Under the pieces are notes generated by a model that had not been told where the DNA came from, ran no database searches, and worked only from the letters and a program-made list of their open reading frames with translations. The position numbers and the translations under genes are program-made. Shown here piece by piece: positions 3,318 to 59,800 of a DNA stretch of 64,000 bases (positions are counted from its first letter, which is position 1; each line of letters starts with the position of its first letter). Source of the stretch: Botryllus schlosseri (lineage: Eukaryota); NCBI GenBank assembly GCA_051294905.1, contig CM119371.1, forward strand, positions 2,606,001-2,670,000. Direction: 5' to 3'.

Positions 3318-3423
3318 TTAATTCTCGACGCCGTATTGACATATAAATTCTTCGAGTATCTCATCAAATCTCAGTTTCATAATACAGCAAATATTTCTCC
3401 CAATAAAATGAAATCTGTGTGGT
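3318..3423 (-). CDS. Candidate terminal coding exon of the NLR gene (RPHRFHFIG...QYGVEN*)
   Basis: Phase-2 acceptor cattcag matches the preceding donor. Stop TAA at 3318-3320, with AATAAA on the minus strand at 3281-3286. Confidence 0.45.
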
Positions 3424-21400: not shown

Positions 21401-24400
21401 GGCTATACAGGGTTAAGCTTGAGCAATTAAACTCTTAAATCGACTTTATACGAGTCTCTCATGAGCAACAACGGGGCATTATAGTGGTAAGAATGGGCTT
21501 GATAATAAATAATCACAGCAGCGCTGGTCGCGCACAATTTCTCGCGAAAAGTGGACAATGCTAATAATAGCACTAACTGCATAGTTTAGACAAGAAAATA
21601 TCGCCGAGAAATTATTGAAAATGTAGATAGTATGAACCGACAAATAGTACCGTAAAACGGGGTAACTTTGGACAATTTTCAACAATTCCGCTTTGTATCT
21701 TGAAAATGCTAGGGTGTAGGGGAGGCAAGATTTGTGTTTTTCGGGGATTATGGAGCAAAGATTAGAATTAACTAATCCAAAATCTTCATGGTCATAAAGA
21801 AGTACCCGTGTTTTGTAAATTATCTGTGTCCAAAGTTACCCCGGCATGTGGGTAACTTTGGACAATGTAGTTTTTTGTATGTCTTTACACTCTATTGTTT
21901 ATGAAACCCCGTAAATGAGGCTTATTTGTTAAGAGTTGATGAGAGCAGTGGCTAAAACTGAAACAAAGCAGTAGACGTCTGGCCTATTGCATGATTTTGA
22001 CCCAATCACCCCCCCCCCCCCCCAAAAAAAAAAAATTACCCTCATATTCATCCCTTATCTAAATTTTCCCTCATGTGTTCACCAATTGGGACTTATAAAT
22101 AAAATATGGCGATAAGGGGTATCCCACTGGCGGTGTCAGCAATCGACAGCAAACATTAAGCATGTTGCCGTGATTTATTGCCGATTTCAAATATTTTACT
22201 GTTCTTTAAAAGATACACAATTTCTTTTCCTATGCCCTCTGATGGATATATTTGTTGTAATTTACAATCTCCGATATTCAGGGTGTATTGAGGGTGGAGA
22301 TCATAGAGGATACTTAAGTTCCGGTTGCCAAGTAACACATGCTTGAGTACTGAGTATTACTCAATTGAGGATCATAAAGTATCCTCAGACCTAAAATGAG
22401 TTTTTAACGGCACAAAAAACGTCCGAAACTTAAGGTACGTGTAGTGCTAACTTAAGTACGCGACATGTTACTTCGAGAGCTCCGGCGTTACAGTTGGTCA
22501 GTCATCCGAGGCCATATTTCTCGTCACGCAGCAACAGCGTCAGCATAGTTACACCACAATGACCTATAGTAATGCATAACAATGACCTGGGAGTTGCAGC
22601 GGACGACTGAAAACATAAGCAAACGGCTTCTGAGGTAATATGCTGGGGATTACTCTGCATTGTAATAGTCATACCGCAATGGTCTAGATTAATGCCTAGC
22701 AATGGCTAGAAGCTACTGCGGATGACTGCAAATACAAACAAACAGGTGCTGAAGTGATGTGCGATGGTCAGGCTCGAAATCAATTTCTTAATGACTGTTG
22801 TACTGATTTAATTTATTATAACTGGCTAAATTGCTATAAACTATCAAATACAGAATTACAAGCGATAATCTAACAATTGTAATAATGAGTGATGTTCCAG
22901 CGAAGAGGGAGCCCAATTTCTCTATTCAAGAAAAAAAGTTGTTGTTGGATTTAGTGGCAGAAAATCTCGTGATTGAAAATAAAAAAAAACAGACAAATAT
23001 TCGACCAACGCGAAAGATAGAGGGTGGGAGAGTCTCGCGGAGAAGTTTAATTCCAGCGGCCTTGGGACAATTAGGAGCCAAAAATGTCTAAGAAAACGCT
23101 GGATGAATATGAAAGATAGGGCGAAAAGTGACGAGGCAAGGCTCAAAAGCGGAAAACGGGGGGTGGGCCGAAGACGTTTATTCCAGACCCTTTGACGGAA
23201 GCAGTATGCTGTGAGTGTAAAAAAATTGAATGAATAGTTGCCTACAATCATACACACTGATTTGTAACAAATGTATTTTTCAGCTGTTGTTCCTGGTCAA
23301 ATTCACCCTATCGATCATTGCCTTGATCACGATACAATCGATTGTGAAGAGGAATCTTACGTTATCATGCATTCGGAATCGCCGGTGACGAGTCATTCTT
23401 CGTCGACTCCCGTCCATTTCGGACGGAAATCAAAAAGAAGTGGCAGCTTTCATTTCGAAGAAAGCGTGGAGCAACCCCCCAAAAAGTCCAAATTTGAAGT
23501 CCTCCGTGACGAATATTTGGCCGAAAAGATAAATGCTATGAAGCAACAAGAAGTAAGAAGAGAACGGGAGTTACAGTTAAAGGAAGAAGAGAGCGTATTG
23601 ACGAAACAAGTTCTTCAGTTGAAAATAAAATATATGGAAATGAAATTGAAAACTGCTGGTTCGGAGTAATATGCAAATTCCTATTTCTGTTGTTGTTTCA
23701 TTAATTATTTTATTGTTACTGCTTTGCTACACATTACTTATTTCCCGTTCGAGATGCTGCATCTGTTGTTGTTTCTTTTATTTTATTGTTACTTCGTATA
23801 TTAACTGCTCGCTGTAGGGTACATTTATTCCGCGTATATAAATTCAAATACACAAAAGAACTATAAATGAATATACGATATAGGAATAGTAGTTGAATAA
23901 AAATGGTAGTAAAAGCGAAAATTATTTCATAAGGTATGCAAGGGCCTTACTCAAAAGTAATTTTCTAAAAAGGTATTTCTGACTGCCCTTCCGGACAAAG
24001 TGTCGTTTTGTGACGGTGCAGTTACAATGTTTACATCGTAAATACTTGGCTCCAGGTCATCTTCTTCGGGCATCGGTTGTTTTAACGCAACTGCGACGTT
24101 GTGCAAGCACGCAATTGATATTATTATCGCCACGCTGCTCTGCAATTTAGTTCTGAGCGGGATCCGGAGAGCACGGAATCTTTGCTTCATAACTCCAATA
24201 CATTGCTCGATTCGTGCTCTAGTCGCAATGTGTGCGCGATTGTATTTTTTCTCCTGTTCAGTGGTCGGATTGATAATTGGAGTTAGAAGGTGTTTTAATA
24301 ACGGGTAGCCATTGTCACCTAACAGAATTCCGTCAACTCCTGGGAATTTCTTGACCTTATAAAATTCACATTTCAGTGTTGCAGTATCATGCATCGAATG

Positions 24401-27400
24401 CATAAAACTGATTTTGTGCTTTGATATGGCGTACGCCACACGGTGTACACTTCTTCGTGCAGTGTGGCGAGACAGGCCAGCAAGGTCTCCATCGGTTACT
24501 TGGAAGTGTCCCGTAGCAAAAAAAACGCAATGCAATGGTTAAATGAAGCAGAGGGTGCAAGCTATGACTCCTAGCTTGGAAAACCTCGTCCCCTTTTATA
24601 TTATCGAATATCTCAATGACGGCATTTTTATAAAACCGACATCGTTTTATAAATTCTCCGTCATCATATTTCTCAAATGGATTCTTAGTATCCCTGAGGC
24701 GCCTGCGTGGAATCGATTCCGATTGCAGAATCTCAATTTCTTCAATTAAAGCAGCCATTTCTTTGATTATTATTCGCAGAATGGCCGATATTTAGGTTTT
24801 GCGGACGATAACAATCGGAACAGACGCTCGTTACTTAGCGACGGCTTTGGATCATGACGTCATTCTGATAAAAATAAATCTGGCAACCAGTTTCGGGATT
24901 TTCACATATCGGCTTGAGTGTTAAACTCCACTCAGTTAAATTAAGTGTGAGGATACTTTATGATCTCGAAGTTGAGTTCGAATAACAGACACAACTCAGT
25001 TGAGTTGCTGCAGGCACTTAAGTTGAGGAAAGTTTATGATCTCCACATGTTTAAGAGTATGTAATAAGTTTTTGAAGTAGCTTACACCCGATTACAATCT
25101 CTTAGCTTATTACCCACCCGTTTTTTTCAAATTTTGGCCAACTCTTGATTCATTCCCGCTTCTCAACAAAGCCATTTAGTTTACGAATTTAAGTGCCACT
25201 GTGATTGTCGGTACGTAGGAAGAACAACTCAGCGCCTGCAGGAACGTATCAAACAACATGTACCGCGCGTTATTAAACTACGTACATTAAATTCCCAGAA
25301 ACAGGCCGCTGAAACTGAAACTGAAACTGACCTAAGGGTGTTGGAACACAATCAGGCCGTGGCAATGAACTCTGCCATTGGCAGGCATTTAGCTGAGAAT
25401 GCTATTTGCGCCAATAACTATAGTGACGACAGATTCTCAATTTTGGGTAAAGGCCGCACACTTTTCCACTTGTCCGCGCTGGAATCAACAATCATTAAGA
25501 TCCATCAACCACGCTTATGCCAGCAGAAGGAACGTTTGCTTCAGCTAAAAATTTGCCACTAGCTGCGCTCGCGGTTTTGTCTGCACTTGATGTTGTTTTG
25601 TTTCTATGACGTCACAATTCGATGTATGCAATGTAGTTATATGCAAGTTTTTGAAATTCTCGTTATGCCGACGATTACCCCTGATGAGTGTTGGCTCGAA
25701 AAGCTTCGGGTTTTGATATATTTCTAGTATGAATATATTATTAAAATGTATATTAAAGTTCTGTACCCCAAAAAGTCTCTTCATTCCATTTTAAAAGCCA
25801 TCAGGCCGGTCATAACGAATATAGTTGACGATAAACTTTGACACAGATGAAGCAGCCACTTTCCTGAGCTCTAAATATCACATTTTCCCCTGTCCAAAGT
25901 TACCCCGTTCTGATAAAATTTGACAGGGTAACTTTGTACATCAGATTTTCTTATATTGATCCAAGGGTGAGCCCACTGAAATTTTTGCCGTGGATTAAGA
26001 CTACCTAGAGCAGGGGTTCTCAACCTGGGGGGCCGCGCCCCTGGGGGGGCGCGGGAGGCTCTCAGGGGGGGCGCGAGAAATTGACGAAGTCAGTATAGGG
26101 GGGGCGCGAGAAATTGACAAAGTCAGTATAAATTGTACGTGTCTGAACATCTGTTTCACATCCATTATGAGAAGACGATTAATGAAGATGAAATTTATTC
26201 CATATTCAAGAAAGCTTGCAAAATACAAACTCTAGCAACAGCGCTCAACGGAGTATAGTCTGATTTCAACTTCATTTTAGCAAATTGTTGAAATTCTTTG
26301 GAGATATAGAGAGCAATTCCCACGTGTAAGTCATTCATTGCTTCATAGCTTTGACAGTAGCCTAAAGCTTGTCGCGCTGGGCAGCTCTTGTTAGTAGCTT
26401 GCGAACTGCACTGCCTAAGACAGACTTAGATGCAACATAGGTTGCCCGGTTTCGCCCTCAATTAGGCTATAAATTAACATAATTAATTCATTTCGAAAAC
26501 TGATCAAATTTAGCCTGGCAGGACAGAACGATGCCTTGCTCTCTGTACTCACTACCAGCATCAGGAGTAGTCTCAGGGTGAATTACATCGAAATTAATTA
26601 ATGGATGTCTTGTTCAATGGTTTTTTGTTATTTTCAAACAAGTTTGAAGAAATTTGTCAGCAATGTAAAAGACTCAACAACTGGAATGCAGATTCGAAAT
26701 TGGCATAAGATATACCTTATGTATACTATTAAATCAGGGGTTGGCAGCCTGCAGCCGTAGAAGGGAATTTGAGCGGCCGTTGACGCCTAATTCAATTAGT
26801 ATGTGTTGGCGGCCGTAGACATGCAAATTGCAATTACGAATTCACTCCCGCATTTTCGAGAGATTTTAATTAATCTTGAAATTTTCTTCGCCCTCCGCGC
26901 AATTCAACAAGACTTCATTTTTCGATTTTAATGCAGTAGCGCCCTTCTTAATCTGAGCCGGAATGGGAATTGGCAATAGCAATTCATTCGCGGCCCTGAA
27001 AAATTTTCGCGCTCCGCGCGACAATATGCACCTCCCGGCAACTCTTCATAACTTTGCCACGCGCGATTTCGGTGCGTACACTAGGCCATTGTGAAAGGTA
27101 GAATAGTCCGGAGCTCACCAGGAATGGATATGGACAGTTTACCGTAGGAATTTTGCGTCCAGATCGTTCATTGTGGCTATGCCCTGGAATGCGGCCTTAC
27201 GCTATATACATAAGCAATCGAAATGCGGTCATGATTATCAAAAACGTTGCCCACCTCTGTATTAGATGATGTGCTCTTTTTGACATGACGATAAATGCAA
27301 GTCGGGTCAGGGGGCGCGAGTTTTTTGACCATCTCCAAGTGGGGCGCGGGTCAAAAAAGGTTGAGAACCACTGACCTAGAGGTATCTGCTGCCAAGTTTT

Positions 27401-30400
27401 GAATCTATGAATCACATGCTATCTATGTTTGGTTGTAAGAAGTTTAATGGCCATCAATTTTGAAGAAATTGACCCCCGCCATTAATTTGTCAATGTTAGG
27501 TCAAGTTTATCTGGTAGGGAAATGAATCAACGTTTCATTGAGACTACTTGTGGTACAGTAGCCTCATGAAAAAGAATTGGACACCCTTTTCTATTATTAC
27601 CCATTCAAATCTTTTACTGCTTAGTGTCCAAAGTTACCCTTAAGTCCAAAGTTACCCCGGTTTAACGTATTTATAAAACAGAATCAGAGGTGTTCGCAAT
27701 TACTGATAATAGATATAAACCTTCTGCTCCACGATATACAGTAGTACCCAATAAAAAACGACTATGGAGCTGGCAGTCCACGTACGAGTTCAGTGTCGAT
27801 TTCCACAGCATGGATTATCACTGTTTCACTGTAGTCATTCATCTTGTTTTATAACAAACAAAATATTGTTCATTGTGCCAGCCAATAACCTTACAAAAGT
27901 AATTGCAAACCAATATCCGAATTAAGGGAGTCCGTTGCATTCGTAATTTGCAGTGCAACTCTACTTACCTAAACGCAAAGAGATATATTAACTCGGATTC
28001 CCTAAGCCAGCGAATGGAATACATGCTAGCATGGCCTAGTCGGCAATAGTGCTAGTCAACTATGTCGCCAACATTTTATCGATTTAATCCAGCAACATGA
28101 CATGATTTACGAAAATTCACGCCGGAGTAAGCTCGTACTCGAAAACGCATGAACGAAATTGTAGTGGCTGCAACATTTTACAGCAAGTTACCAATGTTTT
28201 GACATTGATGATAATTGATCATTCTACTACGATATTCATTCATAAAGCAGTGTCATGTTTGCTGAAAAAATACCAACGTGGACGGGATGGCCTACCTCTA
28301 CAATTAATAGGAGCCACGCAGTCAACTTCGGTCGAATTCGAACTAGAAACCACATTGACGTTACAGAAAATGAAAATTATCCAACACCGCTAACTAGAAT
28401 GTTTGATATCTGACCTTTGTAAAGATCGTTTTGTGATTTCGAGAAGACGACGCCTGCCACAAATCGCCGCACGACTGACCATCTTTCTTCATGGAGATGT
28501 TCTTCATCGAAGCGAGAGAATTCGGTAAACTCCATTTCCGTGATAAAGATGGCTGCCAGATATTCTTGAACACTTTGATGACAAAAGAAAAACGTGAAAT
28601 CTCCTTGCATCAAATGCCGGCTGAGTAGATTGTTCCCAGGAGCTTTCGTCATTAAATCTTGGACATCCTCTGAGGATACTCCAAACTGTGTCAGGTCAGA
28701 CTCTTTAAACACGACCCTTCCTTCTATCATGCCTTGAAATGCCAATGCCTTTAGTTTGTTGACGATAGATATAATTTGATCCCGATTTCTAATGTTTTCG
28801 ACACTTTGCAGAGCTAATATGATTCGGTTGTAGAGTTCTGCTACCGTTTTTGGAGGAGGTTCACTAGGATCCCTTCCCATCACAACTGCTGTTAAAATCA
28901 GGAAAACGGGTACGGAAACTAAATTCAGCAGTCTCGGTGACATTGATTTGATATTCTGCCAGAGTTCCTCGCCTTTTTCATTCAGTAAAAACACAAATAG
29001 CCTGTAGGCGTCTTCCAAAGTAAGACCATTCAGCGTAATGATGGTTTTGGGTCGCGCCATCGCCGGTAACTCCGAAACCGCAAATTCACGTGAAGCTATG
29101 TAAACTTTAACGTGTCGGAGGATATTCCGCGCTAGAATGTTATACATGATTGTACAGCTGCTTGCGGCTTCGTGCTTTTTTACTTTGCGCAGACTTTTCT
29201 CTTCAAAATGCCACCTCGCTTGATCAAGCCCGTCGAATATTAAAATAGCGTCAGATTGATGTTCGTCGAGCCATTTGAATGCTTCTTCTTCGTCTTTTTT
29301 GTTTTGGTAAAGCCCCCCAAACAAAAATTTTGACGGTTTAATTTTGCTCCTTACTTCAATATCCTTCAATTCAATATAATGTACCATTTTTAGATCGGAA
29401 GAATGCATATCTTCGACTTCCTCCCTTGCAGTCGACATACTGAGTGCTTGTCTAGCTATTCTGCGTGTGAGTGTGGATTTTCCCGATCCAGCGGATGCGA
29501 CGATAGCAGTTGTCCCAACTGATTTTGACGAGTCCAATATTTCCCTCTGCCATACGGATGCCATTACTTCATCAACATCGATCGTTTTACCGCTAACTTC
29601 GCCTTGGCGGATAAACCCAATTTCCTTTGTTAGCTGATTATGCCCAAACTGGGAAAACTGCTTGTGATGCCATTCCGACTGGTCCGTGAAAGGTAGCCTG
29701 GAATTGACAACATATAACCTACTTTTGAATAAAAACGTGTGAATTAAACCATAGGCTGTATAAATCGAACCCGAAATATGTTTACTTTGCAGCCTACTCG
29801 TTCATCTATGTACACTGTACAGTTAGTTAGTTAGTTAGCTAGGGTTACTCAAAAATTTCTTTTTTTTCTGGATTCCGGCCATTCACTTGTTAAATTGTCA
29901 GGTTAGCCTTGAACACGCTGCACACCAAATTTGGTTCAATTCCAACCAGCAGGCCTATAAGACGCCGCAGAGCACATTTAAATTTTCAATTTATTATGAA
30001 AAAAAAAAGTTTCTGTCAAATTGTCGAGTTGTCTTCAAAAACGATGCAAAAGAAATTTAACTCAATTCTAACTCGTAGAATATGAGTTATTTGAGTTTGT
30101 CATTTATTATTCTGGGATTATCCACCGCCAATGCTATTATTGCAATTTATGCAGAACTTTAAACTGCAACAACTCCACTTCTACAGGTTGGAATTGAGTC
30201 AAATTTGTTTTGCATAGTTTTTGAAGGCAACTCAACAATTTCACTGGGTTGACAGAAAATTTTGAGAATTTTTTCTTTTAATTTTTCATGATAAATCAAA
30301 AATTAAATTGGGTCAGCGGTGGCTTATACTGATTAGAATTGAACCAAATTTGTTGTGCAGCGTTTCTAAGGGTTACCTGACAATTCAATCAGTGAATGGC

Positions 30401-43462: not shown

Positions 43463-45102
43463 CTACTTATTAATCGGGCTTCACACAATGATTGGAGTAA
43501 TCGAATCTGAATGGAGATTGGAGAATTAACTCCATGATTCGAATCAAAAAGTGAGACATGATTTTTCGGACACGAAAATGATAAGCTCATTGCTTCAAAT
43601 CGTTAATTCCTTATTGAAAATTGTAGTTTGGATACGATTTTCCCTTGCGGATGACTGTATATACAATAGGGCTGGGCACAATGATCAGAGTATCTGAATC
43701 TGAATTAAGTATTAATTCTAATGATTGGAGTCAAGTAGCGAAATTATGCGACCCTTGCCAATAGGGTCGTACAAAAATTGAGTACCTGAGTGAATCGATT
43801 CATAATCACGTATCAGTGTACGAGTCGAGTATTCGAGTATCACTCTTCACGACGAAATACCAGTAAGATGTCAAAGTTCATACATGTGCCTTTCAAGCTA
43901 CTGCAAAGAATACAATGCCTGTACTTTGGTATTTTTCGACCATACCGATTTCATTGCACTTTGCTACAATGCTATGGGTAGGTCATTACTTCAGAACTAT
44001 GTTAATCCCACTAACATTCGTATCTTTGTACTACATGTTCCGTTTGCCGCGACCCAACCGACCGAGATTTCAATGCTTCCAAATACTGCCGTAACTATAA
44101 TTCTCGGTACAAATTAAATTTCATTGACAAGTAGCTTATGATATCAGTACTCTATAGATTCAATAATCGAAGCAAATTTGATTACTCGAATCATTGTATC
44201 CATCCCTATTGGCCAATAAACGTTAATTAATGAACCAGAACCGTAGTTACCATCGTATTTTCCAATGGAACTCTAGTGCTCATATAACAGCTTACGAAAG
44301 CTGTCGTACCAAACTATGTCAGCGGAAATGAGAAATCTGTGAAGTTGTGATCAGCGCACAGCATTCGCAATGAAATAGGCATGGTCGACAAATACCATAC
44401 TGTACTCAATATGATATATAACCGGCATACAGGCGGCTGTAATTCACTGAAATAAGTGATGCAACTTATCCCAAAACAACTTTATACTTTTAAAAATGAA
44501 ATTGTAAAAGGAGCTAGTTGGAAGTGGAATTCGTCAAAAACAATGGTTTTTAATCATGTGTCCAGCGCCCCATGGTGGTAATTTGTGTTTTGTAGGGGGC
44601 GGAAACACTCAGGGGTGATATGGGGGTGCTGGGACTTTATAGGGGGCGCCGAAGAAAAATGGCGATTTAGTTATAGTTATTAGCTGTGTTGTTAGTTACT
44701 TGGTTAGGATTTTTAAGGTCGTTGTTAATAGATTAGTTGAAGCAGAGAGTCTTGCATTGTCAGTACAGAGTTTGCAAATCCAATAGTTTGTACAAGTCTG
44801 GTTGCAGCACCACAATAGTGGATCAAAATTATTCATGGACGCAACTACATACGTTTTCCACACCATTCAGCGCGTTCATACAAATTGTCCCATCTTCAGA
44901 GGTCTTGAATTGGATGAAGCACATCTGTTGGATATTTCAATGGCGGATTTGATGGAGATCTGAATACAAGATGTCAAAAACGTGACAGCAATGCATTCAA
45001 GCACACTAATACATCAAGGAGTTGTACAATGTACAGGCACCTGATGACTATACAGCTAATGGTAATAGTAGTAGTATAGATCGCTCGTGATGCGCCATTG
45101 TT

Positions 45103-45330
45103 TCTTATGGGCGGGGTGGCGAGCTAACGAGAAACCGGGGGTGGCGAGCTAACGTTTTCGTCTTATGGCGGGGGTGGCGAGCTAACGTTTTCGTCTTATG
45201 GCGGGGGTGGCGAGCGGCACTTATTTCTTATGGCGGGGGTGGTGAGCGGCAATTATGTCTTATGGCGGGGGTGGCGAGCGGCTATTGCGTCTTATGGTGG
45301 AGCTGGCATGCGGTTATTGTGTCTTATGGG
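45103..45330. repeat. Subterminal GC-rich tandem repeat, about 31-33 bp unit TCTTATGGCGGGGGTGGCGAGC... (mirrored at about 58700-58930)
   Basis: About 6-7 consecutive imperfect copies visible. Confidence 0.9.
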
Positions 45331-45696
45331 TGCGGTCGTGACTCGCCCTTTCAGGTATAGCTCGTGGCGGTGATTCGCCGTGAAAACTCGTGGTCGTGAC
45401 TCGTCTTTTTTGCTATAGGTGGTGGCGGTGATTCGCCTGTCGTGTATTCTTACGGGTGCGGTCGTGATTCGTACTTTCAGGCATCTCTCGTGCGGTGTTG
45501 AATATGTACGAGTCACCAACAATAACCGCACAAACGGAAACGTGGCTTGTTGTGAGGATTAAGCAGTGCGTGCGACCTATATTTCGAATGACCTGCGTGT
45601 GGAATTGTTTCCCGGCCAACTGCGTGCTACTATCGATTATTACACTAATCCATTCAGTGCGAAATAGTTTGCTAAATCTAGGAGTCACTTCCAAGG

Positions 45697-46560
45697 TAAT
45701 ATTTTGGTAATTAGTTTACCACGGAGCCGGCGTAGACGGCGATTCCAATACCAACAATAGCCGCGTTCACATATTAACACTCCAAATAGGTGTGAAATAG
45801 TTTGCAAACCCTGCGATCGCTGACAAGATAATGTCTCAGACATACGCGACTTGATGTTACAGGCATATCGATCACTCACGCGGTGAAATTTTCGTAAGCA
45901 GTTTGGGACAGAGCTTGATTTCACTCGTAAGATTTAATAAGTAACGAATAACAGACCGCCAGTGTCGGTAACTTGAATAGCGACAAATTGCCACTTATTT
46001 CCGCTCTAACCCTAATCCTTTGTGAAGTGAACGCTTATTCAAAAAGGTGTGAAATATTGGTAAAATCCCGCGACCGCTCACAAGATAATACCTAAGACAT
46101 AACCATCGCTCGCGACTCGCTGTTACATACACGCCGATCGTTGACAATGTAATATTTTGGTAATTGGTTTGCCACATAACCGGCGTAGACGGTGATACCA
46201 ACAATAGCCGCGTTCACATATTAACACTCCAAAAAGGTGTGAAATAGGTTGCAAACCCCGCGATCGCTGACAAGATATTGTCTCGGACATAACCATCTTT
46301 CGCGACTTGCTGTTACATACATTCCAATCACTCACAAGATACTATTTTGGTACTTAGTTTGTCACAGAACCGGATTTCGCTGGTAAAATTTAATAAGTAA
46401 CGAATAACAGAGCCGGCGTAGACGGTGATTCGAATACCGACAAATTTCCACTTATTTCTGCCCCAACCCTAATCCTCTGTGAAGTTGACGCTTATTCAAA
46501 AAAGGTGTGAAATAATTGTAAAATCCTACGTCGGTGACGCGATAATGCATCAGACATAGC
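45697..46560. repeat. Four imperfect direct-repeat modules of about 190-270 bp in the arm (mirrored at about 57470-58335)
   Basis: GGTGTGAAATA recurs at about 45789, 46045, 46236 and 46504, with shared CCGGCGTAGACGG and CGATCGCTGACAAGATA blocks. Confidence 0.85.
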
Positions 46561-46799
46561 GATCTAGTTATAGTACGGTGTCGGAATCCATTCGCGAGAT
46601 GTTCTATAGGTAAATTGAGATAATCCGAAACGAAATATTTTGACTTTGACGTAGTGTGAATTGAAATAGGATTGACAAACATGACCATCAACTTTCCCAC
46701 AGTCCCATATTGATATTATACGCACATTGATTTGAAACAAGTAATGGAACATTGCAACTCTATTCGCGATCCGACTTTTCGTTTGTCAAAGCGACATTT

Positions 46800-47700
46800 T
46801 AACATCTTACCATACTCAAAAGAATTATTTACAACATTAACAAGTGTTCAAAATCTAGTTTTCACTTACTTGATTATATCACTGCAACTCACAAATTTGA
46901 ATTAATTCATCCTGGTTGTATTTGTATGATCGGTCTTTTTTATTCAATTGTAAAGGTCGTTACTATTCTGAAGACAAAGTAAGCTATTTACTAATCGACA
47001 CATAAATGACTTGACATAAACATATTATATTTTGAGTATACGAGATTTGGATGTCTGAACAATAACTGAGAAATAATTTATCACAATAAAATCCGCATAT
47101 TACAGCGTAAAAGATGTTTGAATGTCAGCAACTCTGTACGGCCATAGTTACTATCACTAATTTACCCGACCAACTCGTCATGATCATTCCTGAAATCAAC
47201 ACAAATATGACCACTGACTTGAGTTAACCACAAAACAGCGTCAAGTTTTAAATCCACTTGTAGCTTACGGCTTATTTGAATGCGGGTTATGTTTTGTTGT
47301 AATTGAGTGTACGGAAATAGTATTACATCTCGACATCTTACCATCTTACCATATTCAAAGAGTCAACCACGAAAACATTGTCAAGTCAATCCGTTTGTAA
47401 CTTACCCAACTAACTCAAGCAGTATCAGTATGAAAACAACCAAGCATACACGAGTCCATACAATCGCTACAATCTAAAATCCATAGCAAGTTCGGTTTAG
47501 GCATATACCACCAACTCGTCCTTTTTGTTCAACTGTAAAAGTCGTTACTATACCACAAGACAAAGAGATTACTATGCGATATATTTTGTAAGACAAAAGT
47601 AATTACCACTCGGTGCAGGTGATTTGAGATTAACATAATATGTTTGAGTATACGAGATTTGAAAGTCTGATCAAAGTATAGTTGCGACTTCATTTCTTAC
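46800..47700. repeat. Diverged direct duplication within the arm (about 46800-47100 vs 47340-47700; mirrored in the right arm)
   Basis: Shared blocks CATCTTACCATA.TCAAA, GTCGTTACTAT...AAGACAAAG and TTTGAGTATACGAGATTTG. Confidence 0.7.
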
Positions 47701-50349
47701 AATCGAACGCTGGTGTTATATCGAAAGTTACCATTCTGTAAACATAAGGATTGATACATTGACGTGCCATATGCAATAGTTGATCATGGCTTGATTATTA
47801 CATTATTTGCGTTAATTAGACCCGGCGTTGTGGTAAAGGTTATTATGACAGCAACAAACTTTTCAGTGCCGTTGTTATTAACATATTGAGTTGTAAAACT
47901 ATGCGTGTCTGAAATGTTCTTGAATGGAAAATTATTTCACCTTGGTACATATCACCCTGCGTATCGCGGATATCAGAAAATATTTTACAAATGTAATTGT
48001 CTCCACTAACCAAGACTAAAGATGAAACAACAATTTCCTTTGTTGAACAATAACCGGTACAATACTTTATCATCGTAATCTGTGGTGAGAATTGAAACAC
48101 TTTCGCACATTACCCGGTGTCAAGATATCACTCTAGGTGAATTGACATACCACCGCTTGATTAATACCTAATCCGTTCGCACCATTTCACATACTTTGAT
48201 CATTACAAAAGTAAATTGGAATATGTTTGCTAGATGCATTCAATTCAGTTAGAAATGTCTGGTGCACAACAATCGTAATATCGAAAAAGTACTTGCTACA
48301 CTATAATTCACTAAACGTGTTTTGTATTGTTGTTCATTTGTAGTATTGATTGAAATTGTTTTTGAACCCTCAAATAATAATTCCCGACATGAAACTAAGC
48401 CGCTGAAAGTCGTTACCATCACAAAGAAACAATTTGCACGATGTTTACTAAATGTGTCCTATAGTTAGGTGTACTGGAATTATTTGTAAAACACACACAC
48501 ACACACACGATCAGAGAAATTGGAAATTTTTCCGTTGTCATTCGCTAAAGTAAATGTCGTCACAATACTCTGTCACTAAAAGACGTTACTTGGACGTGCT
48601 TGAATTCTAGACATAGTTCTGATTTACCCAACACAAGACCCAAGGACAACCCTAGTTTCAGCCGAACACAGATATCCAAAATATCACACACTTCGCTATT
48701 CCTAAAGCACAAACACCCGATACAAAATAATACTTGTTGTGTTGTTGCGGCATCATCACTCAACAATATCACCCTCAATACAAATGATGTTTATGTGTAA
48801 CATGCTATTGATTTGAACCACACCCACCTGACGGAAGAGGATTTACTCAATCTTTACAAAATGGATATTGACCAACATCACATCACCGGATTGTATCTGT
48901 TTCGCTGGATACGAGTTATGTTAGTTTAACAGTAAACAAATTTCACCCTCTTGGATTATGAACTCAATGCGTTAGCAGTCATTCAATATTTTGTTTGTGT
49001 CAACTAGTTACTTGGTATGTTACTCCACAACTCTTACAAAAGTACGAAAGATATTAACATCGCACTAAGTAATTAACTTTACTCGATATTCTCGCATTAC
49101 GAAACTAAAGAATGGTTGGTTAGACTCTACAAACTGTTTCGATATCACAAGACCTTTATTGTCTGAATGGGTGTTCATGTGTCTTAAGAACCAAATAGTT
49201 CAACACAGCGCTAGTACCAACAGAAACATCAGAGTTGTTTACACAAAAGTTTGTATGCGTACAGTATGCGAATACCATGCGTAAGTCCAGCACAATTGTG
49301 GTATCCATCCGGGTTTAGTTAACACAATTTACGACACCGAGGTCACCTCATCTTTCGTAAGACAACAAACCAACCAAGGTTTCAGGATATGTCCATGTTA
49401 TAGCAATAAATCAGCTACTCCAACAACAGAGTACATATGTTTTCTAGTTACGGTGCTTACATCTTACACACAAATCAATCTACTTTGCTAACAAAAAGTG
49501 CTGGGTCATCAAGTGATTGCCCTAGCAACAAAACAGCTAAACGTACTATCATACAAAATGGCCGTTATAGTCACCAACGGTACATGGTACAAGTAACAAG
49601 TCTCGAGAATCCAGTTATTGAAAAAACATGAAAGTGTTTCTCCTGCGCCAAGTCGTTATGTTGACGAAAGCGTATATTGTAGTATCATGATCGATTTGCA
49701 TTCGTTGGTCACAAAATGTCACTACTCTAAATAATTATTTTTCACTCAAACACAAACGCATACTTGTCACCAATCGTTTTCATCAAGCACGAGTTCAAGA
49801 AACCTGCTACGACATGAATTCCGATTTAGTTTTACAAATATTTTATAATTGTTTTTAGTAACACTATATCAATGTCATCAAGTTGAGTGTTTACGATATT
49901 GGTGTGTAGGTGTGTGTCATAGCCTACTTGGGGGGATCCGTATTACAATTGACTCGAATTGACTAAATGTAAGAAGGGTTGAAATGTTTCGAATCGATTC
50001 ATAAGTGGTCTTCGTTGTGGTTTTCGTCGGACATACAGCACGAACTAACTGTAGACTCCTCTCTGTTGTACAGCTACTCGGTAATCGAAATGCATTAACA
50101 TGTAAACAACGATCTTGTTTCGTCACACCAAAAATATGTTCACTGTCGCGATACTCCGCACAAGAGGTGCATAGCCTTTTCACACTCGTAATAGTATACC
50201 AACGTCAAGCGATAACGTTTAACAAGACCAACGACACTGAACCCACGACGTTTACCTATGTAAAATTACCACTTTCACTTGCCAGTCCATCGTTTACCTG
50301 ACTAAACATATTATTCTCCTTTGGAGATCTGACGTTTACCCAAAGTAAG

Positions 50350-50860
50350 AAACCATTTTCACTTGTAAATATATTTTTTCCTCGGCTAACAAACCTTTTT
50401 TCACTTGGAAATATATTTTTTTCCTGAGCAACAAACCTTTTTCACTTGGAAATATATTTTTTCTCTGGGTAACAAACCTTTTTCACTTGGAAATATATTT
50501 TTTCTCTGGTTAACAAACCTTTTTCACTTGGAAATATATTTTTTCTCTGGGCAACAAACCTTTTTCACTTGGAAATATATTTTTTACCCGGTAACAAACC
50601 TTTTTCCCTGAGCAACAAACCATTTTCACTTGGTGGTCCGTCGTTTACCCGAGTAAAAATATCATTTTCCTTTGGAGATCCGGCGTTTACCCAGTGTAAC
50701 AATACATTTTCACTTGGAAAAATACTTTTACCTAGAGTAACTAATCATTTTCTCCTGGGTAACAAACCCTTTTCGTCTGGAAACTATCATTTAACTGAGT
50801 ACCAATACCGTTTTCACTTGGAAATACATTTTTTCCCTGGGTAACAATACCGTTTTCGTT
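50350..50860. repeat. 41-bp minisatellite TTTTTCACTTGGAAATATATTTTTTCTCTGGGTAACAAACC (mirrored at about 53170-53680)
   Basis: About 6 close copies at 50350-50600, plus degenerate flanking copies. Confidence 0.9.
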
Positions 50861-53800
50861 TTGAAAACTGACAACCACACCGGCCAATTTGATATTTTTG
50901 TATATTGTTACAACGGTCAGTGACAAAATATACACCAACAACGACTCCGATACATTTGTGTATTCGCATACTCACTTGCTCTGGCGCAGTCCCATCAAAA
51001 TCGACGGTGAGCCACACACACACACACACACACAAACACAATAACAATGCGCTATTTCGATATGACTGCGATGTCCGGGTTCATGCTTTAGATTTTCCAG
51101 AACCAATCCGTCTAAAGTTGTAATCCCCCCACCTTTGTTAACTGGTTGATACACGGATAACAATCTTCGGAAAATGTAGGAACGCATACTACCCATCGTG
51201 CTAACGATTCCGGGTTACTTGTGATTAATTTCCTTGCTCACCCTATACAGATTATACGTACAGCGATATGTAGCGGTAATCGGTTTGGTCAATACATATC
51301 GCCCCATTCAGTATGGAATTACAAACCCAATACAGGTCAGTTCATAACCGGATCCGGATATTCAATGCAAAGCGATAAAGCAGAACCAATGACCAAATGT
51401 AATTAAACATGTAGATTCACAACCCTTGATTTTTTTCGTGAAAATTGACAATACATATCGAATATATTTTACGATGGTTCAACCCTACCAAGTATTCTCG
51501 TAAATGTGGTTTATGACATTACATACAATGCGTCGGTGTACAAATGTTGGGTGTTTATGCACACATCGGTATGACCTATAGACAACATCATCATACCCTC
51601 CAGGACTTCGTTATTATATCGCGAGTTCAATAAAATCAATTTTGTATATTCAATCGGTGGCATAGACGACGGAAGGCTTGGAGATCCAATGTAAAATTCA
51701 GACAAACAAACGGGTATATTTGTCCATCTTGGTTCTTCAATCAACTACCATTGGTGCTCTCGATACAGCTAACGGTACAGTATGCAACGCATATCATTAG
51801 AGTGATATATCCACAGGTAAATATGGGGCCTGGCCACAATAATTGTACGACGCCGACAAATCGATGCACGCAAGGTGTGGTTGATGATAATTGTTTCATG
51901 TGTCAAAGATACAGCACTCTCTTGTAAAGGTTAGCAGATCCTGCAGAAGCACAACTTGGATTACATTACCAAATCGATTTCAAACTTAAACCGAATCACT
52001 GGTGTTGAGAGTAGTGATATCCGATTTTTCGAATATTCATATCGACTTAGTGAACGATCGGTAACGACACTTATCATAAACATTATGAATATTAGTAATT
52101 CCAGTCGTGTCTATCTTGTGTTGTTACTAGTTGCTAAAACCATCGAGTGAATCAGTGAAAGGATAGTAATCTGGGTTAAAGCTCGATACAATTATTGTGG
52201 CCAGGCCCCATATTTACCTGTGGATATATCACTCTAATGATATGCGTTGCATACTGTACCGTTAGCTGTATCGAGAGCACCAATGGTAGTTGATTGAAGA
52301 ACCAAGATGGACAAATATACCCGTTTGTTTGTCTGAATTTTACATTGGATCTCCAAGCCTTCCGTCGTCTATGCCACCGATTGAATATACAAAATTGATT
52401 TTATTGAACTCGCGATGTAATAACGAAGTCCTGGAAGGTATGATAATGTTGTCTATAGGTCATACCGATGTGTGCATAAACACCCAACATTTGTACACCG
52501 ACACATTGTATGTAATGTCATAAACCACATTTACGAGAATACTTGGTAGGGTTGAACCATCGTAAAATATATTCGATATGTATTGTCAATTTTCACGAAA
52601 AAAATCAAGGGTTGTGAATCTACATGTTTAATTACATTTGGTCATTGGTTCTGCTTTATCGCTTTGCATTGAATATCCGGATCCGGTTATGAACTGACCT
52701 GTATTGGGTTTGTAATTCCATACTGAATGGGGCGATATGTATTGACCAAACCGATTACCGCTACATATCGCTGTACGTATAATCTGTATAGGGTGAGCAA
52801 GGAAATTAATCACAAGTAACCCGGAATCGTTAGCACGATGGGTAGTATGCGTTCCTACATTTTCCGAAGATTGTTATCCGTGTATCAACCAGTTAACAAA
52901 GGTGGGGGGATTACAACTTTAGACGGATTGGTTCTGGAAAATCTAAAGCATGAACCCGGACATCGCAGTCATATCGAAATAGCGCATTGTTATTGTGTTT
53001 GTGTGTGTGTGTGTGTGTGGCTCACCGTCGATTTTAATGGGACTGCGCTAGAGCAAGTGAGTATGCGATTACACAAATGTATCGGAGTCGTTGTTGGTGT
53101 ATATTTTGTCACTGACCGTTGTAACAATATACAAAAATATCAAATTGGCCGGTGTGGTTGTCAGTTTTCAAAACGAAAATGGTATTGTTACCCAGGGAAA
53201 AAATGTATTTCCAAGTGAAAACGGTATTGGTACTCAGTTAAATGATAGTTTCCAGACGAAAAGGGTTTGTTACCCAGGAGAAAATGATTAGTTACTCTAG
53301 GTAAAAGTATTTTTCCAAGTGAAAATGTATTGTTACACTGGGTAAACGCCGGATCTCCAAAGGAAAATGATATTTTTACTCGGGTAAACGACGGACCACC
53401 AAGTGAAAATGGTTTGTTGCTCAGGGAAAAAGGTTCGTTACCGGGGAAAAAATATATTTCCAAGTGAAAAAGGTTTGTTGCCCAGAGAAAAAATATATTT
53501 CCAAGTGAAAAAGGTTTGTTAACCAGAGAAAAAATATATTTCCAAGTGAAAAAGGTTTGTTACCCAGAGAAAAAATATATTTCCAAGTGAAAAAGGTTTG
53601 TTGCTCAGGAAAAAAATATATTTCCAAGTGAAAAAAGGTTTGTTAGCCGAGGAAAAAATATATTTACAAGTGAAAATGGTTTCTTACTTTGGGTAAACGT
53701 CAGATCTCCAAAGGAGAATAATATGTTTAGTCAGGTAAACGATGGACTGGCAAGTGAAAGTGGTAATTTTACATAGGTAAACGTCGTGGGTTCAGTGTCG

Positions 53801-56800
53801 TTGGTCTTGTTAAACGTTATCGCTTGACGTTGGTATACTATTACGAGTGTGAAAAGGCTATGCACCTCTTGTGCGGAGTATCGCGACAGTGAACATATTT
53901 TTGGTGTGACGAAACAAGATCGTTGTTTACATGTTAATGCATTTCGATTACCGAGTAGCTGTACAACAGAGAGGAGTCTACAGTTAGTTCGTGCTGTATG
54001 TCCGACGAAAACCACAACGAAGACCACTTATGAATCGATTCGAAACATTTCAACCCTTCTTACATTTAGTCAATTCGAGTCAATTGTAATACGGATCCCC
54101 CCAAGTAGGCTATGACACACACCTACACACCAATATCGTAAACACTCAACTTGATGACATTGATATAGTGTTACTAAAAACAATTATAAAATATTTGTAA
54201 AACTAAATCGGAATTCATGTCGTAGCAGGTTTCTTGAACTCGTGCTTGATGAAAACGATTGGTGACAAGTATGCGTTTGTGTTTGAGTGAAAAATAATTA
54301 TTTAGAGTAGTGACATTTTGTGACCAACGAATGCAAATCGATCATGATACTACAATATACGCTTTCGTCAACATAACGACTTGGCGCAGGAGAAACACTT
54401 TCATGTTTTTTCAATAACTGGATTCTCGAGACTTGTTACTTGTACCATGTACCGTTGGTGACTATAACGGCCATTTTGTATGATAGTACGTTTAGCTGTT
54501 TTGTTGCTAGGGCAATCACTTGATGACCCAGCACTTTTTGTTAGCAAAGTAGATTGATTTGTGTGTAAGATGTAAGCACCGTAACTAGAAAACATATGTA
54601 CTCTGTTGTTGGAGTAGCTGATTTATTGCTATAACATGGACATATCCTGAAACCTTGGTTGGTTTGTTGTCTTACGAAAGATGAGGTGACCTCGGTGTCG
54701 TAAATTGTGTTAACTAAACCCGGATGGATACCACAATTGTGCTGGACTTACGCATGGTATTCGCATACTGTACGCATACAAACTTTTGTGTAAACAACTC
54801 TGATGTTTCTGTTGGTACTAGCGCTGTGTTGAACTATTTGGTTCTTAAGACACATGAACACCCATTCAGACAATAAAGGTCTTGTGATATCGAAACAGTT
54901 TGTAGAGTCTAACCAACCATTCTTTAGTTTCGTAATGCGAGAATATCGAGTAAAGTTAATTACTTAGTGCGATGTTAATATCTTTCGTACTTTTGTAAGA
55001 GTTGTGGAGTAACATACCAAGTAACTAGTTGACACAAACAAAATATTGAATGACTGCTAACGCATTGAGTTCATAATCCAAGAGGGTGAAATTTGTTTAC
55101 TGTTAAACTAACATAACTCGTATCCAGCGAAACAGATACAATCCGGTGATGTGATGTTGGTCAATATCCATTTTGTAAAGATTGAGTAAATCCTCTTCCG
55201 TCAGGTGGGTGTGGTTCAAATCAATAGCATGTTACACATAAACATCATTTGTATTGAGGGTGATATTGTTGAGTGATGATGCCGCAACAACACAACAAGT
55301 ATTATTTTGTATCGGGTGTTTGTGCTTTAGGAATAGCGAAGTGTGTGATATTTTGGATATCTGTGTTCGGCTGAAACTAGGGTTGTCCTTGGGTCTTGTG
55401 TTGGGTAAATCAGAACTATGTCTAGAATTCAAGCACGTCCAAGTAACGTCTTTTAGTGACAGAGTATTGTGACGACATTTACTTTAGCGAATGACAACGG
55501 AAAAATTTCCAATTTCTCTGATCGTGTGTGTGTGTGTGTGTTTTACAAATAATTCCAGTACACCTAACTATAGGACACATTTAGTAAACATCGTGCAAAT
55601 TGTTTCTTTGTGATGGTAACGACTTTCAGCGGCTTAGTTTCATGTCGGGAATTATTATTTGAGGGTTCAAAAACAATTTCAATCAATACTACAAATGAAC
55701 AACAATACAAAACACGTTTAGTGAATTATAGTGTAGCAAGTACTTTTTCGATATTACGATTGTTGTGCACCAGACATTTCTAACTGAATTGAATGCATCT
55801 AGCAAACATATTCCAATTTACTTTTGTAATGATCAAAGTATGTGAAATGGTGCGAACGGATTAGGTATTAATCAAGCGGTGGTATGTCAATTCACCTAGA
55901 GTGATATCTTGACACCGGGTAATGTGCGAAAGTGTTTCAATTCTCACCACAGATTACGATGATAAAGTATTGTACCGGTTATTGTTTAACAAAGGAAATT
56001 GTTGTTTCATCTTTAGTCTTGGTTAGTGGAGACAATTACATTTGTAAAATATTTTCTGATATCCGCGATACGCAGGGTGATATGTACCAAGGTGAAATAA
56101 TTTTCCATTCAAGAACATTTCAGACACGCATAGTTTTACAACTCAATATGTTAATAACAACGGCACTGAAAAGTTTGTTGCTGTCATAATAACCTTTACC
56201 ACAACGCCGGGTCTAATTAACGCAAATAATGTAATAATCAAGCCATGATCAACTATTGCATATGGCACGTCAATGTATCAATCCTTATGTTTACAGAATG
56301 GTAACTTTCGATATAACACCAGCGTTCGATTGTAAGAAATGAAGTCGCAACTATACTTTGATCAGACTTTCAAATCTCGTATACTCAAACATATTATGTT
56401 AATCTCAAATCACCTGCACCGAGTGGTAATTACTTTTGTCTTACAAAATATATCGCATAGTAATCTCTTTGTCTTGTGGTATAGTAACGACTTTTACAGT
56501 TGAACAAAAAGGACGAGTTGGTGGTATATGCCTAAACCGAACTTGCTATGGATTTTAGATTGTAGCGATTGTATGGACTCGTGTATGCTTGGTTGTTTTC
56601 ATACTGATACTGCTTGAGTTGGTTGGGTAAGTTACAAACGGATTGACTTGACAATGTTTTCGTGGTTGACTCTTTGAATATGGTAAGATGGTAAGATGTC
56701 GAGATGTAATACTATTTCCGTACACTCAATTACAACAAAACATAACCCGCATTCAAATAAGCCGTAAGCTACAAGTGGATTTAAAACTTGACGCTGTTTT

Positions 56801-59800
56801 GTGGTTAACTCAAGTCAGTGGTCATATTTGTGTTGATTTCAGGAATGATCATGACGAGTTGGTCGGGTAAATTAGTGATAGTAACTATGGCCGTACAGAG
56901 TTGCTGACATTCAAACATCTTTTACGCTGTAATATGCGGATTTTATTGTGATAAATTATTTCTCAGTTATTGTTCAGACATCCAAATCTCGTATACTCAA
57001 AATATAATATGTTTATGTCAAGTCATTTATGTGTCGATTAGTGAATAGCTTACTTTGTCTTCAGAATAGTAACGACCTTTACAATTGAATAAAAAAGACC
57101 GATCATACAAATACAACCAGGATGAATTAATTCAAATTTGTGAGTTGCAGTGATATAATCAAGTAAGTGAAAACTAGATTTTGAACACTTGTTAATGTTG
57201 TAAATAATTCTTTTGAGTATGGTAAGATGTTAAAATGTCGCTTTGACAAACGAAAAGTCGGATCGCGAATAGAGTTGCAATGTTCCATTACTTGTTTCAA
57301 ATCAATGTGCGTATAATATCAATATGGGACTGTGGGAAAGTTGATGGTCATGTTTGTCAATCCTATTTCAATTCACACTACGTCAAAGTCAAAATATTTC
57401 GTTTCGGATTATCTCAATTTACCTATAGAACATCTCGCGAATGGATTCCGACACCGTACTATAACTAGATCGCTATGTCTGATGCATTATCGCGTCACCG
57501 ACGTAGGATTTTACAATTATTTCACACCTTTTTTGAATAAGCGTCAACTTCACAGAGGATTAGGGTTGGGGCAGAAATAAGTGGAAATTTGTCGGTATTC
57601 GAATCACCGTCTACGCCGGCTCTGTTATTCGTTACTTATTAAATTTTACCAGCGAAATCCGGTTCTGTGACAAACTAAGTACCAAAATAGTATCTTGTGA
57701 GTGATTGGAATGTATGTAACAGCAAGTCGCGAAAGATGGTTATGTCCGAGACAATATCTTGTCAGCGATCGCGGGGTTTGCAACCTATTTCACACCTTTT
57801 TGGAGTGTTAATATGTGAACGCGGCTATTGTTGGTATCACCGTCTACGCCGGTTATGTGGCAAACCAATTACCAAAATATTACATTGTCAACGATCGGCG
57901 TGTATGTAACAGCGAGTCGCGAGCGATGGTTATGTCTTAGGTATTATCTTGTGAGCGGTCGCGGGATTTTACCAATATTTCACACCTTTTTGAATAAGCG
58001 TTCACTTCACAAAGGATTAGGGTTAGAGCGGAAATAAGTGGCAATTTGTCGCTATTCAAGTTACCGACACTGGCGGTCTGTTATTCGTTACTTATTAAAT
58101 CTTACGAGTGAAATCAAGCTCTGTCCCAAACTGCTTACGAAAATTTCACCGCGTGAGTGATCGATATGCCTGTAACATCAAGTCGCGTATGTCTGAGACA
58201 TTATCTTGTCAGCGATCGCAGGGTTTGCAAACTATTTCACACCTATTTGGAGTGTTAATATGTGAACGCGGCTATTGTTGGTATTGGAATCGCCGTCTAC
58301 GCCGGCTCCGTGGTAAACTAATTACCAAAATATTACCTTGGAAGTGACTCCTAGATTTAGCAAACTATTTCGCACTGAATGGATTAGTGTAATAATCGAT
58401 AGTAGCACGCAGTTGGCCGGGAAACAATTCCACACGCAGGTCATTCGAAATATAGGTCGCACGCACTGCTTAATCCTCACAACAAGCCACGTTTCCGTTT
58501 GTGCGGTTATTGTTGGTGACTCGTACATATTCAACACCGCACGAGAGATGCCTGAAAGTACGAATCACGACCGCACCCGTAAGAATACACGACAGGCGAA
58601 TCACCGCCACCACCTATAGCAAAAAAGACGAGTCACGACCACGAGTTTTCACGGCGAATCACCGCCACGAGCTATACCTGAAAGGGCGAGTCACGACCGC
58701 ACCCATAAGACACAATAACCGCATGCCAGCTCCACCATAAGACGCAATAGCCGCTCGCCACCCCCGCCATAAGACATAATTGCCGCTCACCACCCCCGCC
58801 ATAAGAAATAAGTGCCGCTCGCCACCCCCGCCATAAGACGAAAACGTTAGCTCGCCACCCCCGCCATAAGACGAAAACGTTAGCTCGCCACCCCCGGTTT
58901 CTCGTTAGCTCGCCACCCCGCCCATAAGAAACAATGGCGCATCACGAGCGATCTATACTACTACTGGTAATACAGAGACACTACAGTAGATCTTGAACTG
59001 GGGTCTATATATCCTTTGATGGTGTGCAACTGCACATATACTAGTTGAAGGGCCAAGTCGACTCATTACACAGAGTGACTCGAGTCGAGTCATTTCAGTA
59101 CTTCGAGAAAATGACTCGAGTCAAGTCGAGTCAGCAGAAAGACGTGGCTCGAATCGAGCCATGACTAGAGTCATTGCAAGTTGCAACCCTGATTTGTCGC
59201 GTATGCTGCGACACGGCCAATCAAGTTTTCAAAGCTTCCTCAGTGGAAATAGCATCGAAACTATAATTGTCGTTAGTAAATCAACTTTCAAATGCGAGTA
59301 GCGTATGATACCGGTACTCGAAAAAATCGTATTTTACTACCCAACTAGAATCATTGTGCCCAGCCATAACAATGCATATAAATATTGTGAGAGATGTATA
59401 GAGCAGACAGCAAGATGGATAAAAATGGCAACACAATTATTCTACTGCAATCCCAACATAGTGTAAGGCTAGCGCTAAAATTGCATCGATTCAACTTGAG
59501 TCGGACTCGAGTCATTATATTGGATATACAAAATGACTTGACCCATACGTCGGTCATTGTGCATTCCTCGGACAAGTCATAAGACTCGTGTATTAGTACC
59601 AATATTTGGAAAACAGACAGAAAAACTGTGTTTATGTGTATTTACAAACAAGTTAGGAGTGAGAAGAATGACTAGTGGTTGTAATTGGTAGTGGCGAGAA
59701 AACGCAGATATTCGGATCTGAAATCATTGGTTTGTCAAAAAATATAATTCATAATTTACCTACTTTTCACCTCATATTTCATTCGGAGATTGATGTTTGT

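Follow-up and report, generated by a model that had tools for sequence, protein, structure and literature searches.

A palindromic element of Botryllus schlosseri is a young copy of a large non-autonomous Maverick/Polinton family, probably mobilised in trans by autonomous relatives

The DNA analysed is a stretch of 64,000 nucleotides from Botryllus schlosseri (NCBI GenBank assembly GCA_051294905.1, contig CM119371.1, positions 2,606,001 to 2,670,000 of the forward strand), referred to as a whole as the window; coordinates given without a contig name are window positions. Positions 45067-58965 are occupied by a whole-element palindrome with Polinton/Maverick ends, which begins with AGTAGTAGTATAG, finishes with CTATACTACTACT and has the terminal sequences AGTAGTAGT/ACTACTACT. 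The palindrome consists of a non-coding left arm of 6781 bp (45067-51847, + strand), a unique central spacer of 339 bp (51848-52186) and a right arm of 6779 bp (52187-58965, - strand), whose sequence is that of the left arm in reverse complement; together the arms account for 97.6% of the length of the element. A global alignment of the two arms shows 13 substitutions, 11 of which are transitions, and a single 2-bp indel, a difference of about 0.19%. The element lies between two copies of GGTAAT (45061-45066 and 58966-58971), a 6-bp target-site duplication (TSD).

Each arm carries repeats near its outer end and near the spacer. The outermost sequence, AGTAGT-N6-GATCGCTCG (45067-45087, + strand), is a terminal motif that opens with an (AGT)3 reiteration. 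It is followed by a subterminal array of about six copies of 32-33-bp repeats (45136-45329, + strand; mirror copy at 58703-58896, - strand), and the inner arm contains arrays of 41-42-bp tandem repeats (50346-50866, + strand; mirror copy at 53314-53682, - strand) that are found again in other copies of the element. No ATG-initiated open reading frame (ORF) of 80 aa or more is present in 45000-52200, which covers one arm and the spacer, and searches of 44500-59500 returned 0 Rfam matches and, with ARAGORN, 0 tRNAs. In a raw RNA run, 52 of 12,895,792 records touch the window stretch, each just partially, and the window copy does not contain the ORF carried by other members of its family (see below).

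The ends of the palindrome are those of autonomous Mavericks in the same genome, called helpers here; the palindromic elements are called satellites. The motif AGTAGT-N6-GATCGCTCG occurs 440 times in forward and 441 times in reverse orientation in the 495.5-Mb assembly (reversed control, 0 and 2) and bounds the satellites on both sides, as it does the two autonomous elements recovered. Satellite ends begin with 5'-AG and finish with CT-3', as do those of the coding elements, and the copies carry (AGT)2-3 at the extreme end. One autonomous element (C1:5923771-5942033, 18.3 kb) has a terminal inverted repeat (TIR) of 443 bp and the exact TSD GCCGAG, and encodes a 1214-aa protein with a pPolB domain (PF03175, 32.6 bits by hmmscan against a cut-off of 25.8), a 359-aa rve integrase (PF00665, 60.1 bits) with a chromodomain, and a 215-aa NTPase that gives weak matches to AAA/Pox_A32. 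The other (C2:27873469-27889298, 15.8 kb) has a TIR of 560 bp at 100% identity, the exact TSD TACGTA and a full-length pPolB match inside it. The first ~440 bp of the window element align with the TIR of this second element at 76-79% identity, and the subterminal array of the window element is homologous to helper TIR/subterminal sequence at 76-85%; these 32-33-bp repeats are probable candidates for binding sites of helper proteins. The two TIRs of a helper are 99.5-100% identical to each other. The 18.3-kb autonomous element also encodes a 432-aa protein (L051:4223-5518, - strand) that has 238 relatives at E ≤1e-5 with 32-40% identity, which carry the name "F54H12.2-like" in fish, snails and a wasp. 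It is a widespread Maverick-associated protein and probably a capsid component.

When the pPolB protein was used as a query, all 38 places scored, out of 437 first-look candidates, matched at 92-100% amino acid identity and 34 of the 38 had no stop codon; potential helpers are therefore many and seemingly intact. Neither pPolB nor an rve integrase was found in the window element, either by ORF scan of arm and spacer or by tblastx of these against the autonomous copy, which aligned the terminal repeats only. The window copy thus has no replication or integration genes of its own: it belongs to the Polinton/Maverick superfamily by its ends and its TSD, is non-autonomous, and does not have the coding content by which an autonomous Polinton is recognised.

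Twelve other elements were fetched, 10 by similarity to the end of the window element and two as likely autonomous copies, one picked by length and the other by a polymerase match between its ends. All 10 similarity-picked copies are palindromic, with arms of 3.1-8.1 kb (the rearranged copy C9b is among them), and the two other fetched elements are the autonomous copies, so that palindromes make up 10 of the 12. The arms of the window copy and of the 10 others are colinear at 65-94% identity. Among palindromic copies with both ends readable (n = 8; the ends of C5a, C5b and C9b are too damaged for TSD scoring), seven have an exact 6-bp TSD (GGTAAT, CACATA, CAGGAC, CACTAA, CCCATA, GGTGGA and GCCGCC) and one has a duplication matching at 5 of 6 positions; one nested copy also has an exact 6-bp TSD. 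Genome-wide, a 29-mer from the arm (≤2 mismatches) was found 571 times in forward and 581 times in reverse orientation, 1152 in all, against 0 and 0 for the control. Among the first 100 marker positions listed, 80 fall into 40 convergent pairs, with a spacing of 6-11 kb in 39 pairs and of 35.7 kb in one; the other 20 are unpaired. The family therefore comprises roughly 570 copies, which at ~13.5 kb each amounts arithmetically to about 1.5% of the genome. In contigs of three samples (three studies), word depth rises 100- to 1000-fold from the flank to the element, which fits a high-copy family but does not give a copy number. Most satellites measure 13-14.3 kb, against 15.8-18.3 kb for the helpers; this range may reflect a size requirement for propagation, or simply descent.

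Two composite loci were seen among the copies. One is a nest of three elements spanning 41.8 kb (G000:C1:16768420-16810257). The middle element, whose arms share 99.64% identity, is bordered by an exact AATACC TSD, and the outer end pair is 99.98% identical with three fetched right-flank bases that differ from the left flank, a mismatch that could result from recombination between copies or from ends that are not a true pair. At G000:C1:33469672/33469825 and 33483188/33483341, a unit of ~13.5 kb has two termini motifs at either end, with 153 bp between them, which would mean either a duplicated end or an element inserted just inside the end of another.

The window element is a real and recently inserted young copy. 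Its left flank, ending in GGTAAT, matches G000:C1:2168650-2169249 at 93%, and its right flank, starting with GGTAAT, matches C1:2169244-2169475 at 86%; the two matches overlap by exactly 6 bases. G000:C1:2169244-2169249 is thus an empty site with a single GGTAAT and nothing inserted (flank identity 51/60 on the left and 56/60 on the right), which is a paralogous locus and not an empty allele of the window locus. The element is accordingly an insertion that entered as a single unit, and the 6-bp duplication was left by an integrase step. A preliminary description of this DNA had given the arm and spacer lengths and the GGTAAT on both sides, had assigned the ends to Polintons/Mavericks and had proposed integration as a unit, with the expectation that the same termini would flank autonomous Polintons and that further palindromic copies would have different 6-bp TSDs. 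These claims hold: the geometry is as described, termini, subterminal repeats and 6-bp TSDs are common to the autonomous 15.8- and 18.3-kb Mavericks, the larger of which carries pPolB and the rve integrase, 7 of 8 scorable palindromes have an exact TSD and the eighth 5 of 6 positions, and the paralogous site has the single GGTAAT.

Both flanks are themselves repetitive. Matches to the left flank (44467-45066) number 41 and are confined to the first 3.8 Mb of contig C1, 40 being on the + strand, a pattern that suggests a local tandem or segmental repeat unit. Positions 230-400 of the right flank (58966-59565) are a dispersed repeat with 2927 first-look candidates.

The satellite design is that of two 6-7-kb non-coding arms around a unique core of 0.3-0.9 kb, and only the outer part of the arms can be traced to helpers. 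Helper-derived sequence accounts for the outer 0.4-1.6 kb of the arms; in the window copy it is the ~440-bp TIR, which includes the 32-33-bp array. In C4, both arms continue into helper left-unique sequence (C2L 630-971, inside a 90.6% match), and in C5b both arms contain helper right-unique sequence (C2R 2961-3339, inside an 86.5% match). Matches to a helper are limited to the outer part of the arm: ~440 bp of the window copy, the TIR with left-unique sequence behind it in C4, and the TIR together with right-unique sequence in C5b. The inner ~5-6 kb have no DNA or translated similarity to the helper C1c (complete) or to the outermost ~3.9 kb at each end of the helper C2. ORFs do occur in the arms of other copies; none of their clusters is present in more than 5 of 10 copies. 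The ratio of nonsynonymous to synonymous substitution rates (dN/dS) is ~0.8-5 in two clusters and 0.5-0.8 in a third where it is computable (several pairs have dS = 0), and a fourth cluster has too few changes to judge. By these ratios the arm ORFs appear to be under no clear purifying selection.

The cores fall into two classes. The short class, ~332-339 bp, comprises the spacers of the window copy and C9, which are 96% identical. The long class, ~860-950 bp, comprises those of C22, C1b, C8a, C4, C8b and C15, which are 75-90% identical to one another with C15 as an outlier; C5a gives partial matches to this class. Between the classes, arm aligns to arm and spacer to spacer, and the boundary between arm and spacer is kept. 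The turn-around point does not vary from copy to copy, as it would among snap-back products formed de novo: the spacers are homologous and their boundaries are conserved across copies and classes. Because homologous spacers lie at the same boundaries, the palindromic layout is inherited. Neither one snap-back at the window locus nor a series of them with random turn-around points would produce such a pattern. Growth of the arms by "inward zippering" into the spacer was considered and found no support, since each region aligns with its counterpart in the other class.

The long spacer class holds an orphan ORF of 91 aa, from Met to TGA (L036:77-349, + strand, equal to G000:C1:29188277-29188549; P0001); one ORF-bearing copy is G000:C1:29181516-29194878. 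Of the 8 fetched copies with this ORF, 6 have it intact, whereas two stop codons break it in C4 and the start is missing in C8a. Pairwise dN/dS is 0.30-0.75, with dS up to 1.09; the lowest values, ~0.3-0.4, come from pairs with the divergent C15 and lie well under the ratios of the arm ORFs. The ORF is, by this measure, apparently under purifying selection. Among its genome matches, 150 of 150 are full length or at most two residues short and 148 are free of stops, these being the best 150 of 1197 candidates, a choice that favours intact ones. A 23-mer marker of the ORF occurs 248 times forward and 211 times in reverse, 459 in total (control, 0), and a 29-mer representing the spacer type of the window copy was counted 101 times (control, 0); the 459 ORF-marker copies and 101 short-spacer copies together come close to the arm-pair count. 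By tblastn, the window spacer shows no trace of the ORF. The window copy therefore belongs to a deletion subfamily of ~100 copies that lost the ORF and still spread. The best Pfam match of the 91-aa protein has an E value of ~0.25 and PDB sequences gave 0 hits. Sequence searches found one near-identical protein among 5.8 billion, and a profile search found one among 1.84 billion representatives; in the Atlas the recognition score was low and the matches were bacterial hypothetical proteins. The AlphaFold2 model is unusable (mean pLDDT 39.9). Since it has no relative beyond what is probably the same species, the protein is a candidate satellite-specific protein.

The arms within each copy evolve together. 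In an arm alignment block of 450 columns, the two arms of every copy (11 of 11) group as sisters, at distances of 0-0.019 from each other and of 0.0095-0.15 from the nearest other copy. Over whole arms, 10 copies differ by 0.02-0.46% substitutions, and satellite arm pairs are 98.1-99.98% identical. A short terminal reiteration and identical inverted ends, as in protein-primed replicons with panhandle-type maintenance of their ends, are both present. Because the palindrome predates the split of the lineages, the distance between left and right arms would otherwise equal or exceed that between lineages, which argues for copying from arm to arm. The arms of C4 and C5b bear on when this happens: exchange with a helper would alter one end, yet both arms have changed, which ties the copying to propagation in a way that is suggestive, not decisive. 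The most asymmetric copies, which point the same way, are also those with the most arm substitutions. C8b has 1242 gap columns between its arms and 0.46% substitutions, C5b has a ~3.6-kb deletion in one arm and 0.35% substitutions, and the rearranged C9b has 1.9% arm divergence in the block; all three look like decay in place, not ongoing repair. In the nest of three elements on C1, the outer copy, which the nested insertions interrupt, still shows 1 mismatch over 4409 bp between its arms, a value that does not separate the explanations weighed below. In 10 copies, 62 of 98 arm-to-arm substitutions lie in the inner two fifths of the arms, a clustering that the 41-bp tandem arrays there may explain.

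Taken together, we regard it as probable that the window element is a young copy of a ~570-copy non-autonomous Maverick/Polinton family whose palindrome is inherited, which is mobilised in trans by helpers and whose arms are copied across during propagation. The pPolB and integrase of a helper would copy and insert the satellite in trans through the shared ends, and mobilisation in trans is the most likely route because the satellite carries the helper termini and subterminal repeats. The same is inferred from the shared TSD length, the ~570 copies and the intact pPolB genes of the helpers. A panhandle formed from inverted ends is a feature of protein-primed replicons in the adenovirus literature, and the Polinton replication model that Kapitonov and Jurka are said to have put forward in 2006 reportedly includes a panhandle of the inverted ends. 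In the satellites, strand-displacement copying would release a single strand able to fold into a full-length hairpin, an extreme form of the panhandle. Such a hairpin would regenerate a duplex origin and expose differences between the arms to correction, and this is the likeliest way in which one arm would be copied from, or corrected against, the other during propagation.

Several other explanations account for part of these observations. The palindromic layout, two Polinton ends and a 6-bp TSD are all present, as they would be if one Polinton end had been copied back on itself once and the lone product integrated here, the endogenised snap-back genome proposed in the preliminary description. 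A diversified family of ~570 copies with homologous spacers and an inherited layout contradicts that proposal, which we hold to be very improbable. All 10 copies picked by similarity are palindromic with the same boundaries, window-type spacers number ~101 and arm markers 1152, and different TSDs exclude the other copies as segmental duplicates of the window locus. The accompanying claim that the arm came from one Polinton end agrees with the first ~440 bp, which match the helper TIR at 76-79%, and finds no support in the remaining ~6.3 kb, which have no DNA or translated similarity to C1c or to the outermost ~3.9 kb at each end of C2. The preliminary description also likened the element to a defective viral genome: the satellite does work like a helper-dependent, mirror-image one, but it did not arise de novo by copy-back. 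The ancestor of the family may have arisen by snap-back. A falsely mirrored contig has even less to recommend it, and its chance is close to nil. The arms are near-identical, and public contigs of three samples are too short to bridge the junctions. However, the arms differ by 13 substitutions and an indel, the TSD and the paralogous empty site are exact, hundreds of copies share this layout elsewhere in the genome and are bordered by other 6-bp duplications, the arm marker occurs 1152 times against 0 for the control, and a contig of an independent sample contains the spacer-to-arm junction of a ~96% related copy.

The remaining explanations accept the family and differ in how the arms are kept alike. 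Conversion between arms is well known for large genomic palindromes, and the few arm differences found everywhere (0.02-0.46% in 10 copies) would suit a family that is mobilised in trans, possibly by integrase-only cut-and-paste, and whose arms are homogenised in the chromosome by gene conversion. This is a serious competitor that we nevertheless rate as rather unlikely: C5b, C8b and C9b retain large indels, neither erased nor copied to the other arm, together with the highest arm divergence, and cut-and-paste alone cannot yield ~570 copies. Packaging of small viral genomes as inverted dimers is known, and each satellite could likewise be made anew from a half-length template of arm plus core, with synthesis running down the arm, round the core and back, so that the arms are identical by synthesis. 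Such a template would account for the sisterhood of left and right arms in 11 of 11 copies and for the presence in both arms of a helper end gained by one. We give it a lower chance still, since a half-length form did not come to light, although the 20 arm markers without a partner in the first 100 places were not looked into, and since the core, non-palindromic and 0.3-0.9 kb long, is large for a turn-around loop.

Several points weigh against inherited palindromes that are mobilised in trans and copied arm to arm. Most of the arm has no detectable helper origin. Action of helper proteins on the satellite, its replication outside the chromosome and its packaging are all putative. Arm identity could stem from gene conversion in place between inverted repeats, or from youth; because the interrupted copy has 1 mismatch in 4409 bp, the sampled ages are narrow and all copies young. 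A whole-genome profile search with PF03175 gave 0 matches, a false negative since hmmscan detects the domain in the helper ORF, and genome-wide counts from that search tool are lower bounds. The family may also already be catalogued in Repbase/Dfam.

More tentatively, and with the odds against it, the palindromes could be replicating satellites of an active Maverick virus population, copied by the protein-primed polymerase of the helper through a full-length fold-back intermediate in which one arm is rewritten from the other, packaged because their mirror layout takes them close to helper size, and in ~460 cases equipped with the 91-aa protein, which would serve the satellite. If so, they would be animal-genome counterparts of defective-interfering genomes or satellites. 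Replication and particle formation of Mavericks/Polintons are still deduced mostly from gene content, and arms that co-evolve and share an acquired helper end make an end-copying step visible in sequence. The family could therefore serve as a natural reporter of fold-back (panhandle-type) replication, of size limits on propagation and of co-evolution between helper and satellite. The family also shows that gene-poor satellites can account for a large share of the "Polinton ends" in an assembly.

Elsewhere in the window, a 474-aa open frame at 28377-29801 (- strand) with NACHT (58.1 bits) and NOD2 winged-helix (30.2 bits) matches is an exon of an NLR-type immune gene, which points to an animal host. 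A fragment of a PIF/Harbinger-type DDE_Tnp_4 transposase (54.5 bits) lies at 23951-24538 (- strand), and 25149-25562 (+ strand) has a weak GIY-YIG match of 21.6 bits, which is under the cut-off.

Among known systems, the snap-back defective genomes of adenovirus and adeno-associated virus and the packaging of inverted dimers arise de novo and repeatedly and are made of helper sequence. Like them, the satellites are mirror molecules with two replication/packaging ends, depend on a helper and approach it in size (13-14 against 15.8-18.3 kb); unlike them, they form a heritable lineage with a conserved unique core, consist mostly of non-helper sequence, have an ORF of their own and are integrated in the germline. 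Foldback transposons (Drosophila FB, Galileo) make TSDs of 7-9 bp and are associated with an FB/P-type transposase. The satellites resemble these elements, which PMC6431247 mentions, in their very long inverted arms, internal tandem repeats, small or absent middle and non-autonomous majority. They differ in a 6-bp TSD in every readable copy, in termini and a helper that are those of Mavericks, and in arms that are mostly unique and not arrays.

A full-text literature search, whose scope did not include Repbase/Dfam and supplements, returned no description of palindromic non-autonomous Polintons. The Tlr1 element of Tetrahymena, according to PMC5499653 "sometimes viewed as non-autonomous polintons", is likewise Polinton-related and has long inverted ends; unlike the satellites, it encodes many proteins and is now classed as a polinton-like virus. 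Autonomous Polintons/Mavericks, described in PMC6431247 as elements of 15-25 kb with pPolB and a retroviral-type integrase, share with the window element the AG...CT ends, terminal reiteration, subterminal repeats and 6-bp TSD. The window element differs from them in having no pPolB, integrase, capsid or other helper genes, and in a TIR of 6.8 kb (97.6% of its length) against 443-560 bp in the helpers. The closest published case found (preprint 10.1101/2025.02.07.637071) is that of butterfly polintons, whose ~2-kb TIRs contain hexon and adenain genes. In both, TIRs of the Polinton family have grown far past the usual few hundred base pairs; the butterfly elements are autonomous and their long TIRs duplicate genes, whereas the satellite TIRs are three times longer, non-coding and set around a core of 0.3-0.9 kb.

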